Origin: a virus | Taxonomy: Duplodnaviria; Heunggongvirae; Uroviricota; Caudoviricetes | Virus record (IMG/VR): IMGVR_UViG_2534681999_000017 | Direction: 5' to 3' (one strand) | DNA: 36,916 bases | In this document: positions 7,243 to 33,077 of the stretch, piece after piece | How the letters are laid out: each line of letters starts with the position of its first letter | Numbering within the stretch: position 1 is the stretch's first letter | The notes under the pieces: generated by a model | What the model was told of the DNA's origin: nothing | Databases searched by the model: none | The model's input: the letters and a program-made list of their open reading frames with translations, nothing else | Program-made: the position numbers and the translations under genes

Positions 7243-8356
7243 TGAATTTAATCCCCTGTTTTTTCATCTGTGCCCGCACGAAGGCGTCCACGTCACCCGC
7301 ATTTCCGCTTCCGCTGTTTCCCGGCTCTGCCGGAACAATAAAGCCGTCACGGGGTGCCAGAATCAGACGGGTGGTTTCGCCGTGATTTGCATCCAGCGAA
7401 AACTCCACCTGACAGACAAGAAGATCACGCTCTTCCACTCCGGTGCGGGGAGCCGTGACAGCCGTCAGCAGGTTGATATCCCACAACTGGCCGTTCTCCC
7501 GAAACCAGTGCCGCACGGTGGCTGTCAGGCGCACAGAGCGGGCAACCGCCCGGCGCATTTCCCGGACAGCCCTCTGGCGTGCACCGTCTGCATCAACAGC
7601 ATGATCCGCCAGCACAATTTTCGGTCTGTAACGGTGGATGGCACTGTCTGTCACCGTACCAACGGGTGCGGCCAGCGTTCCGGCTGTCAGTGCATCCCCG
7701 GCATGACCACCACCACGCCCGTGCCCCCGTACACGGTATTCACTGTGGCGCAGACGGTGATCCACGTTGTGATCCAAATCCAGCAGATTTTCGCCCAGCG
7801 TCAGCGTGTCGCCACGCTGACTGCCGGCCTGAGTGAAAACCAGTTCACCGGCGGCATTACTGGTTACCAGGACGCCTCTGTGTCTCGCGGCCCGTGTCAG
7901 CGCATCTGCCACGGTTTCTGAGTTTTCCAGTGTGAAGGTGGAAAAGGGCCGGGCTGCCGTTGCATCATTTACCTGCCAGCGCACCGTGACCCCGAACGGA
8001 GCACACAAATCTGAAGCAATGTGCTCCAGCGTGCGGTTCCTCCACTGGCTGCCCGGATGAATGGCTGAACAGTCCACCAGGTCACCGGTTTTATCCCGTC
8101 CGCTGAGCGTGATCTGAAAACGCGTGGCGCTGATGCGCTGCCGGACCTGATCCAGCCAGCCAGTGATCACAGGCTGACCGTCAATGCGCAATTCCAGAGA
8201 CTGACCGGCACGGACGGATGACGGAAGGCGTACACCGGGCATCATTACCCCCAGTTCAAAGGAGCCCGCCAGATGTTCAAGAGAGCGACGAACACTCACC
8301 GTCAGCCAGCCGGAAAAAATCTCACCGCCCAGATACAGTTCAACCCTGCTGCTCAC
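7232..8356 (-). CDS. Baseplate hub protein, Mu gp44 (P) / P2 gpD-like
   Basis: 374 aa; size and position downstream of the N-like gene. Confidence 0.65.
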   Translation of the reverse strand: MSSRVELYLGGEIFSGWLTVSVRRSLEHLAGSFELGVMMPGVRLPSSVRAGQSLELRIDGQPVITGWLDQVRQRISATRFQITLSGRDKTGDLVDCSAIHPGSQWRNRTLEHIASDLCAPFGVTVRWQVNDATAARPFSTFTLENSETVADALTRAARHRGVLVTSNAAGELVFTQAGSQRGDTLTLGENLLDLDHNVDHRLRHSEYRVRGHGRGGGHAGDALTAGTLAAPVGTVTDSAIHRYRPKIVLADHAVDADGARQRAVREMRRAVARSVRLTATVRHWFRENGQLWDINLLTAVTAPRTGVEERDLLVCQVEFSLDANHGETTRLILAPRDGFIVPAEPGNSGSGNAGDVDAFVRAQMKKQGIKFNDE

Positions 8357-17950: not shown

Positions 17951-18126
17951 TCCGGCAGCATAGGCCGGGAATTTTCAGGGCGGGTTTTGCGGGATTTCAG
18001 GAAGTGCTTCCAGGGGAAAAATACAAAGGCGCTTCACGCAGATTTTAAAGCCCGTTAAATACAGGTTAGAAAATCACGACACGCGCCTGAAGGGGGTAAG
18101 GTAATGCATTTGCATACCTTAAACAA
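17951..18126 (-). promoter_or_regulatory. Candidate late promoter region upstream of the I-like gene
   Basis: 176 bp gap in an otherwise tightly coupled operon, at the position of Mu P_I; contains CCTTACCCCCT and a TAAAAT element on the transcribed strand. Confidence 0.4.
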
Positions 18127-25049: not shown

Positions 25050-25401
25050 TCGTGGCCGCCTCACTGATTTGTGAAATGAGTTGCAGGGTGTGCTGCTGAT
25101 TTGCCAGCACCTGACGCGCCTCATCCCGCTCACGCACAAGCACCTGATTATTGTCTTCAAGGCGCTGCGTCTTCTGGTGCATTCCCCATATAGCGGCAAC
25201 CAGTACAGCGATAATCCCCAGCGCCGCCATGCACGCCCCGGCAATCAGGGCCGGTAAGGCATTATTCACCGCAGCCACAGGACACCCCGTAACAGCAGTA
25301 CCGCACACAGCAGCGCTATCATGAGCGGTCGCCAGAAGCGGTTCAGACTTTCGGCAAGTCGTAGCGACATAACCATTCATCCGCCGAACGGCGGGCCTCA
25401 A
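24880..25401 (-). CDS. Inner-membrane spanin (Rz-like); true start probably a GTG near 25270-25300
   Basis: TM segment LPALIAGACMAALGIIAVLVAAIW then coiled-coil QRLEDNNQVLVRERDEARQVLANQQHTLQLISQI; the track start overlaps the endolysin 3' end. Confidence 0.6.
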   Translation of the reverse strand: MRPAVRRMNGYVATTCRKSEPLLATAHDSAAVCGTAVTGCPVAAVNNALPALIAGACMAALGIIAVLVAAIWGMHQKTQRLEDNNQVLVRERDEARQVLANQQHTLQLISQISEAATNEKQQNIQHSEGQQSVVRRSLAAVPAASAPVPDDVADRVRRAVCEIRACEAGADPR

Positions 25402-25843
25402 GGCCGGGGAGTTTCACCCCCTTTGAATAAATCCAGCGGATATACTGCTTACAGGACGCGGGCATCTGCCCGGCATTGATCAGGCGCAGAAGCGTGGAGT
25501 TGCGAAAGTTCGTTTCACCGGCCCAGAAGATCCACGAAGCCAGCGCCACCGTCTGACCACGGGTAAGCGGCACCTGAACACGCCGATCAATGGCCGCAAA
25601 GGCCCATTTCATGTCCTTTTCCAGTAGTTCCAGGCATTCTTCATCTGTCAGGGTCATACCCGGTTTCACATCCGGGCCGGTATGGCCGTAACAGATGGTG
25701 GGTGTACCGGTGGGATCGATATACGTGGAGTTTTCTTTCCCTTCCCAGTAACCGGTGTAATGCGTGGCAATCGTGAACGTCCCGGCACCGGCCAGAACAA
25801 GGGCAATCAGCTTTTTACGCAGTGGTGCGGGGAGTTTTGGCAT
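25343..25843 (-). CDS. lys: SAR endolysin, T4-lysozyme family
   Basis: N-terminal Gly/Ala-rich signal-anchor LIALVLAGAGTFTIATHY and catalytic spacing E-x8-D-x5-T in YWEGKENSTYIDPTGTPT. Confidence 0.85.
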   Translation of the reverse strand: MPKLPAPLRKKLIALVLAGAGTFTIATHYTGYWEGKENSTYIDPTGTPTICYGHTGPDVKPGMTLTDEECLELLEKDMKWAFAAIDRRVQVPLTRGQTVALASWIFWAGETNFRNSTLLRLINAGQMPASCKQYIRWIYSKGVKLPGLEARRSADEWLCRYDLPKV

Positions 25844-25844
25844 T

Positions 25845-25882
25845 GTTACGCTGTCTCATGATGTTCTCTGAGTCAGCGTAAC
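25845..25882. promoter_or_regulatory. 9-bp inverted repeat GTTACGCTG-N20-CAGCGTAAC directly upstream of the endolysin start
   Basis: Read directly; lies in the 71 bp gap between the Mor/C gene and lys, where a late promoter is expected. Confidence 0.4.
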
Positions 25883-25914
25883 GGTGAAGGAGAGGCGGCA
25901 GGCTTTGCGGAATA

Positions 25915-26340
25915 TCAGAAAAGTGGCGGTTGCGTTCTTGCCAGATGCAGACGGCGCTGTTCGCGTATGACGGTATAAATCTGGGTTTCTGACATCCGGT
26001 AATGGCGGCGAAGGGATTCAATTTTCTCGCCCCGGTCCCAGCGCGAAAATATCTCATTGTTTCGCAGCTCGGCAAAGAGAGATTCCCCGACCGGCAGGTA
26101 ATAACCCCGTCCGCCCATATAGGCTGCCTGAGCCGCAGCCACCTTGCGTGCCAGTTTACCGGCCAGTACCGGCTCAATCCCCTGACGCTGAAGTTCTGCG
26201 CCGGTGACTTCAACCAGTTCTGACAGGGTCCGCGGCCAGTTCTTTTTGAGAACATCATCAGGGATGTCATCAAGGCGGTCGATAAGGGCGTGCAGTTGCT
26301 CACTGTCACCACCAAACATGCTCATCTGAGTTTCTGCCAT
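25915..26340 (-). CDS. Mor/C-family transcriptional activator (sole family member in window)
   Basis: 141 aa, C-terminal HTH …YRMSETQIYTVIREQRRL… resembling Mu Mor/C as recalled; immediately upstream of the lysis and late genes. Confidence 0.75.
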   Translation of the reverse strand: MAETQMSMFGGDSEQLHALIDRLDDIPDDVLKKNWPRTLSELVEVTGAELQRQGIEPVLAGKLARKVAAAQAAYMGGRGYYLPVGESLFAELRNNEIFSRWDRGEKIESLRRHYRMSETQIYTVIREQRRLHLARTQPPLF

Positions 26341-26370
26341 ATCAGCCTCCGGTTCTCGCGTTCCCGGTAA

Positions 26371-26405
26371 GTTTAAAATAAAAATCCCGCGTTGTGGCGG
26401 GATTT
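26371..26405 (-). terminator. Intrinsic terminator for minus-strand transcription after gemA
   Basis: Perfect 9-bp stem AAATCCCGC/GCGGGATTT with 6-nt loop, followed on the transcribed strand by TTATTTTAAAC. Confidence 0.6.
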
Positions 26406-26409
26406 GGGG

Positions 26410-26919
26410 TTAACGGGGAAGTGATTTTTCATACTGCCTGCAAACGGCGTCATACCCCATCAGCGTGCGTTCGGGCATTCCCATCGCGGCCAGCATTTTG
26501 CGGCGGTGCCATCGCTTGAGACGCTCCAGCACATCTGAGGCCAGGGCGGGGTGTTGCTCCAGCCACTGCCAGTTTGCCACACCTTCGCCGCCGTTCTGCG
26601 CGGCCGTCTGCGATTTCACCCAGCGGTTAAGGGCGGTTTCCGCACCATCGGTGATAAAGCCCTGCCGGTGCATCACCTTCCAGATGGCGCGAATTTTGGC
26701 GGTCACCGTACCCGGTTTTAAGGCCCGGTTAACCGGGTTCTGACGCACTTTAAAACCGCGTTTTTTGAAAACATCCAGCACGCGGGATAACTCATCCGGT
26801 GACATATCCCGGCAGCTGGTTTTGCCGGTGGCTGCCAGCAGCGCGGATGTATAAGTCTCATCATCCAGGGCAAGCTCGCGCTTTGCCACATGAATGGCGG
26901 ATATCAGTTTTCCTCTCAT
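26410..26919 (-). CDS. gemA: GemA-like early protein (Mu gp16, DUF1018-like)
   Basis: 169 aa, MRGKLISAIHVAKRELALDDETYTSALL…; recalled resemblance to the GemA family, last gene of the early operon. Confidence 0.6.
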   Translation of the reverse strand: MRGKLISAIHVAKRELALDDETYTSALLAATGKTSCRDMSPDELSRVLDVFKKRGFKVRQNPVNRALKPGTVTAKIRAIWKVMHRQGFITDGAETALNRWVKSQTAAQNGGEGVANWQWLEQHPALASDVLERLKRWHRRKMLAAMGMPERTLMGYDAVCRQYEKSLPR

Positions 26920-27212
26920 ACCGTATTTACCTTTTTACGGACATGGAAAGCCTTTTCTGCCTCATCCCACCGGGCATGGTGTGTTGGTGGAATAATCATT
27001 ATGTGCCAGCCATCTCTGGTTGTTATCCGGCAGAAAAACTCACCGCTATATAACACAATGGCCTGCTGAATGAGCGCATCAGCCGCCCGTTCAACCGGAT
27101 GTCTTTTATCAAAAAAGCAGATGATTTTTCGACATAACCACCGGGTAATAACAAATGCGCCGAAAAAGGATGTGATATATAAGCACCAGAACAACAGAGA
27201 ACTATTGTCCAT
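26916..27212 (-). CDS. Hypothetical membrane protein
   Basis: 98 aa, N-terminal TM helix LLFWCLYITSFFGAFVITRWLC; lower-GC region. Confidence 0.4.
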   Translation of the reverse strand: MDNSSLLFWCLYITSFFGAFVITRWLCRKIICFFDKRHPVERAADALIQQAIVLYSGEFFCRITTRDGWHIMIIPPTHHARWDEAEKAFHVRKKVNTV

Positions 27213-27399
27213 TATCTTTCTCCTTATTCACTCTTCTGCGGCATTCGGCACAGTCATCAGGGCTTTCAAATGTATCCGGCTCGCGATTATGAGCCAGATA
27301 TAACCACCGTCCACATATACTGATATTTTCGCCTGTTTTAAAAAAATGATGCTTCCTGGCCATTAGTGGCCGCGCCCATCCAGCGGGTAGACTATTCAT
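27202..27399 (-). CDS. Hypothetical small Cys-containing protein
   Basis: 65 aa with ICGRW…DDCAEC; overlaps neighbours. Confidence 0.35.
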   Translation of the reverse strand: MNSLPAGWARPLMARKHHFFKTGENISICGRWLYLAHNREPDTFESPDDCAECRRRVNKEKDNGQ

Positions 27400-27766: not shown

Positions 27767-27948
27767 TTATGTTTTCCAGTAATACGGATATATATGTCGA
27801 TAAGAAGATTCATAATAAACAGGAAGAGCGACATCCTGATAAAGAACCATATATCCGGCATCATGGACAGATTTCCTGTAACCGCAAATATAAAACCAAC
27901 CCCCCACACAGGAACGATAATTGCGAAAAAAACAAGTCTCCTTATCAT
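27763..27948 (-). CDS. Small two-TM membrane protein
   Basis: 61 aa, two hydrophobic helices (LVFFAIIVPVWGVGFIFAV and FFIRMSLFLFIMNLLIDIYI) and basic C-terminus. Confidence 0.45.
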   Translation of the reverse strand: MIRRLVFFAIIVPVWGVGFIFAVTGNLSMMPDIWFFIRMSLFLFIMNLLIDIYIRITGKHK

Positions 27949-28496
27949 GTCGTTAACTCCCGTAATACAACATCTTCGGCAGTCCGACGACGGTGATAAA
28001 TAAAACTCACCGTGCCCTCGGATAATTCAAATTTCTCGCCGATTTCCCTAAAGGTAAGACGCCGTGGTGATTCAGCATCCCGTAATTCACGAATAAGATG
28101 AACATCATCGTCAGGTATGCGGGTAAAAGGCAGTAATTCTCCGTATTTTTTCATGCTTACGCCAATATATCGCGCCCGATTGTGGACAGAATCCCGGTCT
28201 CGCCCCAGATATTCTCCTATTTGCTTACCGGTCATCGTCCTGGCATTTTTTCGGATAAATTTATCTTCATCAGGTTTAAATCTGAGGCGTTTGCATTTGA
28301 GCAACTCCGGGTAAGTACCGCGTAATAAAACAATCCGGTTATGTACACCCCAGAAACTTCTTTTTATCCTGACAGCAATATCCTTAACCGGGGTGGATGG
28401 ATAAAGCGCAATCAGCAGCGCATCTTCTTCAGGTGTCCATGCGCGAACATGAGCGGGTGCACGGCCTTTTCTCCCCATGGGTTGTAATTTCATCAT
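27945..28496 (-). CDS. Putative DNA-binding regulator with three HTH-like repeats (Myb/GcrA-like first repeat)
   Basis: 183 aa; WTPEEDALLIALYPSTPVKDIAVRIKRSFWGVHNRI, TGKQIGEYLGRDRDSVHNRARYIG, TFREIGEKFELSEGTVSFIYHRRR. Confidence 0.5.
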   Translation of the reverse strand: MMKLQPMGRKGRAPAHVRAWTPEEDALLIALYPSTPVKDIAVRIKRSFWGVHNRIVLLRGTYPELLKCKRLRFKPDEDKFIRKNARTMTGKQIGEYLGRDRDSVHNRARYIGVSMKKYGELLPFTRIPDDDVHLIRELRDAESPRRLTFREIGEKFELSEGTVSFIYHRRRTAEDVVLRELTT

Positions 28497-33007: not shown

Positions 33008-33077
33008 ATTATTAACCTCTCATTTGATACCTTGTTTAATCAAATAACCTGAGTCGCCGCTCGGGTTATTTTTTATT

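Follow-up and report, generated by a model that had tools for sequence, protein, structure and literature searches.

A Putative Early-Operon Terminator Joined to a Proposed Promoter of the Sole C-Type Activator Gene in a Mu-Like Prophage of Escherichia coli

Results

The gemA–Activator Junction of an Sp18-Type Prophage

The window (the whole stretch of DNA analyzed here, 36,916 nucleotides of IMG/VR record IMGVR_UViG_2534681999_000017) carries a Mu-like phage whose genes all lie on the minus strand, in the order ner, A, B, early open reading frames (ORFs), gam, gp11, gp12, further ORFs, gemA, a gene of the Mor/C family of activators, the lysozyme gene (lys), and the head and tail genes. Our subject is the junction between gemA and the activator gene, where a hairpin separates the two. 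The features of this junction, in the direction of transcription, are as follows.

26410..26919, minus strand: gemA (Mu gp16 family; Pfam GemA, 3.2e-30), the last gene 5' of the hairpin.
26382..26405, minus strand: hairpin found by terminator scan and folding, with left arm AAATCCCGC at 26405-26397, loop CACAAC at 26396-26391, and right arm GCGGGATTT at 26390-26382.
26375..26381, minus strand: T-run 3' of the stem, which with the three U of the stem reads UUUUUAUUUU (read from the sequence; invariant in relatives).
26346..26350, minus strand: Shine-Dalgarno sequence GGAGG of the activator gene (read from the sequence; CCGGAGG is kept in relatives while the surrounding untranslated region [UTR] varies).
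25915..26340, minus strand: the sole Mor/C-family gene, C-type by sequence, encoding 141 amino acids (aa) (ECs_4961; Pfam Mor, 2.8e-32).
25343..25843, minus strand: lysozyme gene, the first late gene, directly 3' of the activator gene (Pfam Phage_lysozyme, 6e-37).

Positions 25800-27000 of the window match Sp18, a prophage of E. coli O157:H7 Sakai annotated as a "Mu-like phage" (ECs_4943 onward), with 100% identity, and positions 25300-27300 are 99.2% identical to a Mu-like phage that sits within an Stx2c phage. In Sp18, ECs_4960 is gemA, which appears in identical E. coli records under that locus tag or as a "gp16 family protein," and ECs_4961 is annotated as a "positive regulator of late transcription." The literature that we searched contained no account of the Sp18 transcription program or of a hairpin between gemA and the activator gene. 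Elements of the window type were seen in E. coli genomes and in Stx phages (H1, H2, and H26-H50). Of 5,426 complete E. coli genomes, 231 carry the prophage, at a maximum of four copies per genome. It also sits within Stx1a- and Stx2c-converting prophages, and these insertions indicate recent transposition. Sp18 itself is predicted to be intact and its DNA is packaged efficiently (PMC2669165). Thus, being packaged, multicopy, and inserted in Stx phages, the Sp18-type phage is functional, and the gemA–hairpin–activator layout is that of a working phage.

The intergenic sequence between the activator gene and lys contains no hairpin, and scans of the window for Rfam families and tRNAs gave no matches. 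Elsewhere in the window, a 13-pair hairpin lies between the transposase A and B genes (33042-33071); it has a T-run when read on the plus strand, which is antisense to the phage genes, and only a weak one on the coding strand.

The Hairpin Looks Like an Intrinsic Terminator

The stem consists of nine pairs, five of them G-C, closed by a loop of six nucleotides (nt) and followed by TTATTTTAAA, as returned by the terminator scan. Folded alone, the hairpin has a free energy of -13.5 kcal/mol (z = -5.03), and none of 200 shuffled sequences folds as well. It begins 4 nt past the gemA stop codon (26412-26410), and the ATG of the activator gene lies 41 nt from the last base of the stem and about 31 nt from the T-run. 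A G+C-rich stem, a short loop, an adjacent 3' U-run, and a position at the end of a gene are the hallmarks of an intrinsic (Rho-independent) terminator, and all are found here, so that judged on its sequence the hairpin looks like a genuine one. The opposite strand carries no T-run, and the hairpin is thus unidirectional. A first-pass annotation of this DNA had placed an intrinsic terminator with a 9-bp GC-rich stem and a U-tract on the minus strand after gemA, and a Mor/C gene starting about 30 bp beyond it; the folding energies and the distance from the T-run to the ATG uphold both statements.

A Single Mor/C-Family Gene, C-Like in Sequence

The product of the activator gene matches the Pfam Mor family with 111.3 bits (curated cut-off, 24.9) over residues 34-140 of its 141. 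Its alignment with Mu C, which covers 97% of the length of that protein, shows 38.7% identity; the E-values are 6.5e-29 against Mu C and 2.5e-11 against Mu Mor, and the gene lies 71 nt upstream of lys. By these comparisons the activator is C-like, not Mor-like. The linker of the Mor/C family is marked by residues G70, G71, Y75, P77, and G79 in Mu C numbering (PMC2582627). Linker YMGGRGYYLPVGES of the window protein aligns to FLGGRQFYIPCGDT of Mu C, and GG, Y, P, and G are invariant in all 11 sequences compared; the window protein, at 141 aa, is a small protein in the range of 100-150 aa that combines these invariant residues with a C-terminal helix-turn-helix (HTH). Mor and MuC bear β-clamp-binding motifs, Qx[D/E][L/M]F at the N-terminus and QPDLF at the C-terminus (PMC12867686), and the window protein has near, not exact, matches to the clamp-binding consensus in QMSMF (residues 5-9) and the C-terminal QPPLF (residues 137-141).

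We searched for a second family member among all six-frame segments of at least 25 aa from the window and from L003, a complete prophage of 99% identity that contains ends of about 0.35 kb and about 2.7 kb that are absent from the window. With Mu Mor, Mu C, and the window protein as queries, phmmer --max found no second paralog (next best E = 0.2), and a profile hidden Markov model (HMM) built from 11 diverse Mor/C proteins gave one match in the window and L003 (6.9e-63), the next having an E-value of 6.3. Likewise, among 20 ORFs of the early region, Pfam placed a Mor domain only in 25915-26340. As a positive control, the same queries recovered both Mor and C in Mu. All three approaches, including the HMM search over both the window and L003, thus find one gene only, which bears out the first-pass annotation in its statement that the phage has a single Mor/C gene and no second paralog.

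Compared with Mu, the phage is missing mor, Pm, and genes 18-20, the last being three small genes of the middle operon. With a single Mor/C gene, the two-step passage from Mor to C cannot operate here, and to this extent the suggestion that the cascade may be shortened stands; the companion suggestion, that a non-homologous HTH protein fills the middle role, went unsupported (see Discussion).

A single activator is common in Mu-like phages and not special to the window phage, so that the claim about gene content, though right, is not novel. Each of seven other IMG/VR lineages that share the hairpin has one Mor/C gene, and the order is gemA, hairpin, C-like gene, lys. Shewanella MuM16-1 also has a single Mor/C gene, which overlaps gemA and has no terminator. 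In the Mannheimia phages 3927AP2 and phiMhaMu2 and in Haemophilus phage SuMu, which "lack middle genes," one family member lies directly before lys (PMC4553209). The window phage resembles all of these in having one Mor/C gene immediately upstream of the lysis gene and no middle operon. The reports on 3927AP2, phiMhaMu2, and SuMu, however, name the gene mor and class it with the early genes, whereas the window gene is C-like and is set apart from gemA by a conserved, terminator-like hairpin.

The Stem Is Conserved Upstream of Diverged Activator Genes

In prophages whose activators are 83-88% identical to that of the window, a 45-bp block, TTAACCCCAAATCCCGCCACA[A/G]CGCGGGATTTTTATTTTAAACTT, is invariant except for one base in the loop; stem and T-run do not vary and the loop does. 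The flanking sequences, namely the 3' end of gemA and the part of the 5' UTR between AAACTT and CCGGAGG, are heavily substituted.

Searching IMG/VR for the stem with any loop returned many unrelated terminators, together with hairpins directly upstream of C-like genes in phages with unrelated loops, flanks, and leaders. The stem-matching terminators of unrelated phages were used as controls, not as relatives. Since a search by stem presupposes the stem, a second set was assembled by collecting Mor/C genes from IMG/VR through protein alignment and then reading their upstream regions. (A scan of genome contigs with the activator protein alone gave no confirmed relatives.) The upstream regions fell into three groups. 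In the first, the C-like genes encode proteins 44-67% identical to the window protein, and nearly all are preceded by (A)ATCCCGC, a variable loop of 4-6 nt, GCGGGAT(T), a T-run, and TATAAT, TATACT, TATATT, or TATAGT. In the second, which is GC-rich, the gene abuts its upstream neighbor with no hairpin between. In the third, there is a different hairpin with a long loop.

The new observation is that the stem (A)ATCCCGC/GCGGGAT(T), as read in these sequences, is kept upstream of C-like genes even though the activators are only 44-67% identical. The loop is 6 nt long in most lineages and 4 nt in L177. The stems are almost invariant, and there is accordingly little covariation; the exceptions are an alternative stem, AGCGC/GCGCT, in L175 and L178, a G-U pair in L217, and an A-C mismatch in L029 and L031. 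An intrinsic terminator needs a structure and not a given sequence, so the conserved arms call for an additional constraint. The hairpin is real and under selection.

Several lineages depart from this layout. The left arm is absent in L171, L173, L176/L179, and L190, all of which keep the activator gene, and in L177 the dyad is kept without a T-run, which fits a DNA-binding site better than a terminator. L020 (2238-2660) and L027 (2320-2661) carry an antisense moron between gemA and the activator gene and have the hairpin twice, one copy after gemA and one directly before the activator gene. In L080, two copies bracket a sense gene for a signal-peptide-bearing, secreted protein (8299-8721), a sense homolog of which lies 3' of the hairpin in L108 (1372-1824). 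In L020, L027, and L080 alike, one copy of the hairpin is always directly before the activator gene. Tandem hairpins around morons are hard to reconcile with expression of the activator by read-through alone.

In L026 (1490-2990; IMGVR_UViG_646311913_000007), an insertion sequence (IS) lies inside the gemA–activator hairpin, flanked by an 11-bp target duplication, GCCACAGCGCG. The IS encodes a DDE-type transposase of 445 aa, and its ends, TAATGCCG...CGGCATTA, are inverted; contig L030 breaks off at this same point. The missing left arm of L026 and L030 had been taken as evidence for a promoter starting at GCCACA, a reading that was ruled out when the IS insertion and its 11-bp target duplication were recognized. 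The gemA–activator hairpin is evidently a hotspot for the insertion of morons and IS elements.

A Candidate Promoter at the Hairpin

The conserved block extends beyond the T-run, and the following promoter-like elements can be read at its end.

26370..26375, minus strand: TAAACT, the favored -10-like hexamer (the invariant block of the 84-88% relatives ends exactly at AAACTT, after which the 5' UTR diverges).
26380-26375, minus strand: TATTTT, an alternative hexamer (window sequence).
26398-26393, minus strand: GCCACA, a poor -35 element 17 bp upstream of TAAACT, straddling the junction of left arm and loop, with two bases in the former and four in the latter.

At the position of TAAACT, the relatives L172 and L174 (55-67% identical) have TATATT or TATAGT. 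Counting as -10-like any hexamer with at least five of six matches, including A2 and T6, we found one after seven of nine Mor/C-linked hairpin lineages; of 41 unrelated terminators that share the stem, two were followed by one (Fisher p = 1.2e-5). The Mor/C-linked hexamer always lies 28-31 nt from the first base of the stem. Moreover, in L190 and L176/L179, where the hairpin is lost or degenerate, the -10 hexamer is retained.

A promoter scan of the window made no call at the hairpin. Nor is there a Mor dyad centered 43.5 nt upstream of either candidate start, and a Mor gene is likewise absent. A geometry of the Mor type, with the dyad centered at -43.5, was considered and rejected: it would place the start within the Shine-Dalgarno sequence, and Sp18 shows no conserved -10 element at the matching position.

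Late-Promoter-Like Boxes

The left arm together with its flanks resembles a sequence found at late promoters. The relevant sites in the window are these.

26396..26406, minus strand: box CAAATCCCGCC, the left arm plus one flanking base, resembling a late-promoter box (match to CAAANCCYGCC).
25875..25907, minus strand: putative Plys-type late promoter, with box CAAAGCCTGCC at 25907-25897 and a -10 element, TACGCT, at 25880-25875 (top match to the position weight matrix [PWM] described below).
17957..17999, minus strand: putative PI-type late promoter upstream of the protease/scaffold gene, with tandem boxes GAAATCCCG and CAAAACCCGCC at 17998-17979 (10 bp apart) and TATGCT at 17962-17957.

The motif CAAANCCYGCC has four exact matches in the window versus 0.46 expected, all on the minus (coding) strand. 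One belongs to the hairpin, two precede lys and the protease/scaffold gene, respectively, and the fourth falls within the tape-measure gene, near its start. This count is partly circular, since the box was first noticed by eye. The left-arm box and the late-promoter boxes have the core AATCCC in common. The site at the tape-measure gene (11684-11696, minus strand), CCAAATCCCGCCA, is identical to the left arm and its flanks at 13 of 13 positions; it lies 56 nt inside the ORF (9676-11751) and is followed by no convincing -10 element.

In Mu, the sequence ATAA(t/c)C(c/a)C starts exactly 28 nt before the -10 element in four of four late promoters. Margolin, Rao and Howe (1989) reportedly described a conserved sequence, ccATAAcCcCPuG/Cac, which agrees with this box. 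The same box at the same spacing is found at the Plys equivalents, upstream of the lysis gene, of ten other phages, and the 28-nt spacing agrees with the late activator site of Mu, TTAT-N6-ATAA, centered at -43.5 (PMC12867686, PMC2582627). The spacers of Mu Plys and Pmom include a stretch of T residues (PMC4461284).

We built a fixed-spacing PWM trained only on the Mu promoters and the Plys equivalents of other phages. Its best match in the window, at 22.1 bits, was the Plys candidate (maxima in shuffled sequences, 6.2-16.5); the PI candidate scored 6.7 bits, which is within noise, and the hairpin was outside the top 20 matches in the window. Because the PWM finds Plys and not the hairpin, we have not classed the hairpin as a canonical late promoter. 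Relative to late promoters, the spacing from box to hexamer in the Sp18 clade is off by -1 nt for TATTTT and by +4 nt for TAAACT, the conserved hexamer. In another clade (L181, L185, L186, L200, L211, and L217), the spacing at the hairpin is within 1 nt of that of late promoters. The distal half-site TTAT, which lies 6 nt upstream of the proximal one (PMC12867686), is not conserved at the hairpins, whose upstream sequences are unrelated between lineages.

Comparison with the Pm Region and the Late Promoters of Mu

The gene order in Mu is gemA, an overlapping mor, genes 18-20, C, and lys; that in the window is gemA, hairpin, C-like gene, and lys. Directly after the mor stop codon, Mu has a hairpin of its own, AAAGCCGG-TTAAT-CCGGCTTT followed by seven T (Mu 9176-9200; -12.2 kcal/mol). 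This terminator is reportedly named t9.2 (Stoddard and Howe; Marrs and Howe), a name that our literature search did not find. Placing the transcription start site of Pm at Mu 9224 reproduces the published -57G and -54A (PMC4390567). The Mor dyad of Pm is 16 bp long, from -51 to -36, with its center at -43.5 (PMC4287176). With the start at 9224, this dyad occupies Mu 9173-9188, a -10 sequence TATCCT falls at -13 to -8, and the hairpin and T-run occupy -48 to -24 of Pm. Thus, the early terminator of Mu overlaps the promoter that drives C.

This Mu junction of early terminator and Pm is the closest known system to the one described here. In both, a hairpin and T-run come right after the last early gene and overlap the promoter region of a C-type activator (PMC4287176, PMC4390567), the activators belong to the same protein family, and the gene order runs from gemA to C and lys. 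Unlike Mu, the window lacks mor, a Mor dyad at -43.5, and genes 18-20, and its hairpin follows gemA, whereas that of Mu follows mor. The activator box, too, differs in position, corresponding to the left arm in the window and to the loop and right arm in Mu Pm. A second terminator-like hairpin of Mu, AAATAACCGGCA-TCC-TGCCGGTTATTT, was observed between C and lys (L001 10386-10415), after the C stop codon and just upstream of the Plys box.

The hairpin also resembles the late promoters of Mu (Plys, PI, PP, and Pmom) in having a box of the type AAtCCc, a T-rich spacer, a -10 element, and no usable -35 element (PMC2582627, PMC4461284, PMC12867686). The Plys and PI candidates of the window fit the 28-nt spacing of these promoters. 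The hairpin differs from them in its shifted spacing and its want of a TTAT distal half-site, and also in that its spacer is complementary to its box, so that the RNA would form a terminator.

Discussion

On balance, we favor the view that the hairpin is the terminator of the early (Pe) operon fused to the promoter region of the sole, C-type activator in a shortened program with no Mor and no middle operon; from the sequence comparisons presented here, this is probably correct. The hairpin would end the Pe operon after gemA, as the counterpart of the post-mor hairpin of Mu, and the program would run from early genes to activator to late genes. The first molecules of activator may come from slight read-through of the Pe transcript or from basal firing of the weak promoter composed of TAAACT (26375-26370) and its poor -35 element. 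The left arm, acting as a late-promoter-like box (CAAATCCCGCC), might then allow the activator to raise its own transcription. Because there is no terminator between the two genes, this transcription may run on into lys. Self-activation by the activator is inferred from the resemblance of the left arm to late-promoter boxes.

A more specific and more tentative proposal, which we put forward as possible rather than probable, is that the hairpin serves two purposes. Its RNA would terminate the early operon; its DNA would supply the activator's own promoter, with the left arm as box, the T-run as spacer, and a -10 element at its end. The T-run would then have a double role, as U-tract of the terminator and as promoter spacer, and the right arm might be conserved only through the need to pair with a left arm that is constrained as DNA. 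Such a leak-primed switch, locked on by positive autoregulation, would replace the Mor step and would be common to many Mu-like prophages among public viral contigs.

We considered four other explanations. The hairpin could be a terminator or attenuator only, with the activator gene lacking a promoter and its product made by read-through from Pe, in which case the low dose would itself delay late transcription. The anatomy of the hairpin is that of a canonical terminator, there is no good -35 element, the promoter scan is silent at the hairpin, and in other Mu-like phages (MuM16-1 and class B loci) the early genes simply end with the single activator gene, which overlaps or abuts its upstream neighbor. 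We nonetheless hold this explanation to be unlikely, because Mor/C-linked hairpins are followed by a strong excess of -10-like hexamers at a set distance, because these hexamers survive the loss of the hairpin, because conservation runs past the U-tract through AAACTT, and because tandem hairpins around morons would compound termination.

We think it less likely still that a dimeric protein, either the activator acting negatively or another phage or host factor, recognizes the dyad ATCCCGC-N-GCGGGAT as its operator. Such an operator would lie over the -35 element and spacer, with its center at about -28 to -31, and would serve to hold the activator promoter closed during lysogeny or to cap the amount of activator. 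An operator would account for arms that are conserved around a variable center across lineages 44-67% identical and for the dyad without a T-run in L177, and tight control is to be expected given that MuC is toxic on overproduction (PMC12867686). Against it, the length of the loop is not constant, nothing at the late promoters corresponds to the right arm, some lineages do without one of the arms, and no candidate protein was identified.

We give little credence to the idea that the stem is conserved mainly as a module-boundary sequence for recombination and the gain of morons, with regulation incidental. Mosaic junctions do coincide exactly with the hairpin or lie inside it (L020, L027, and L170-L179), and the morons bracketed by two copies and the IS with its 11-bp duplication fit the idea as well, but it leaves the fixed -10 element and the match to the late-promoter box unexplained, and it may be conservation that gives rise to recombination at a shared sequence, not the reverse.

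The last explanation, and the least probable, comes from the first-pass annotation, which had offered a triple-HTH protein as a replacement for Mor.

27945..28496, minus strand: HTH protein of 183 aa (Pfam matches to HTH and sigma-70 region 4 families, all below curated cut-offs).

A non-homologous early protein such as this one would activate a promoter before the Mor/C gene, taking the part of Mor; it has weak HTH and sigma-70 region 4 similarity, a SANT/Myb-like DNA-binding label from PGAP, and weak similarity to Mu gp9 (2.6e-5), but we rejected it as a Mor substitute, as it is not co-conserved with the hairpin layout: among the hairpin-bearing relatives a homolog was found only in L063 and none in L094 and L117, whose loci cover the whole early region from ner to lys and have the same hairpin and a single activator.

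To return to the fused terminator and promoter region that we favor, its interest lies in the comparison with Mu, the textbook case of a three-tier cascade of early, middle, and late transcription. Our survey suggests that, among the sampled relatives, it is Mu whose layout is exceptional: many of these relatives have only a C-type activator behind a conserved, terminator-like hairpin. The phage described here is a variant without Mor that appears to have a late-type promoter inside the terminator. If the element works as proposed, it would explain how late genes, including those for lysis, are silent in lysogens and yet sharply switched on. It would also be a compact and portable cassette of terminator and inducible promoter, in which one short sequence is constrained at the level of RNA and of DNA together. 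The proposal thus offers a testable regulatory hypothesis for a widespread, active prophage in a well-studied family.
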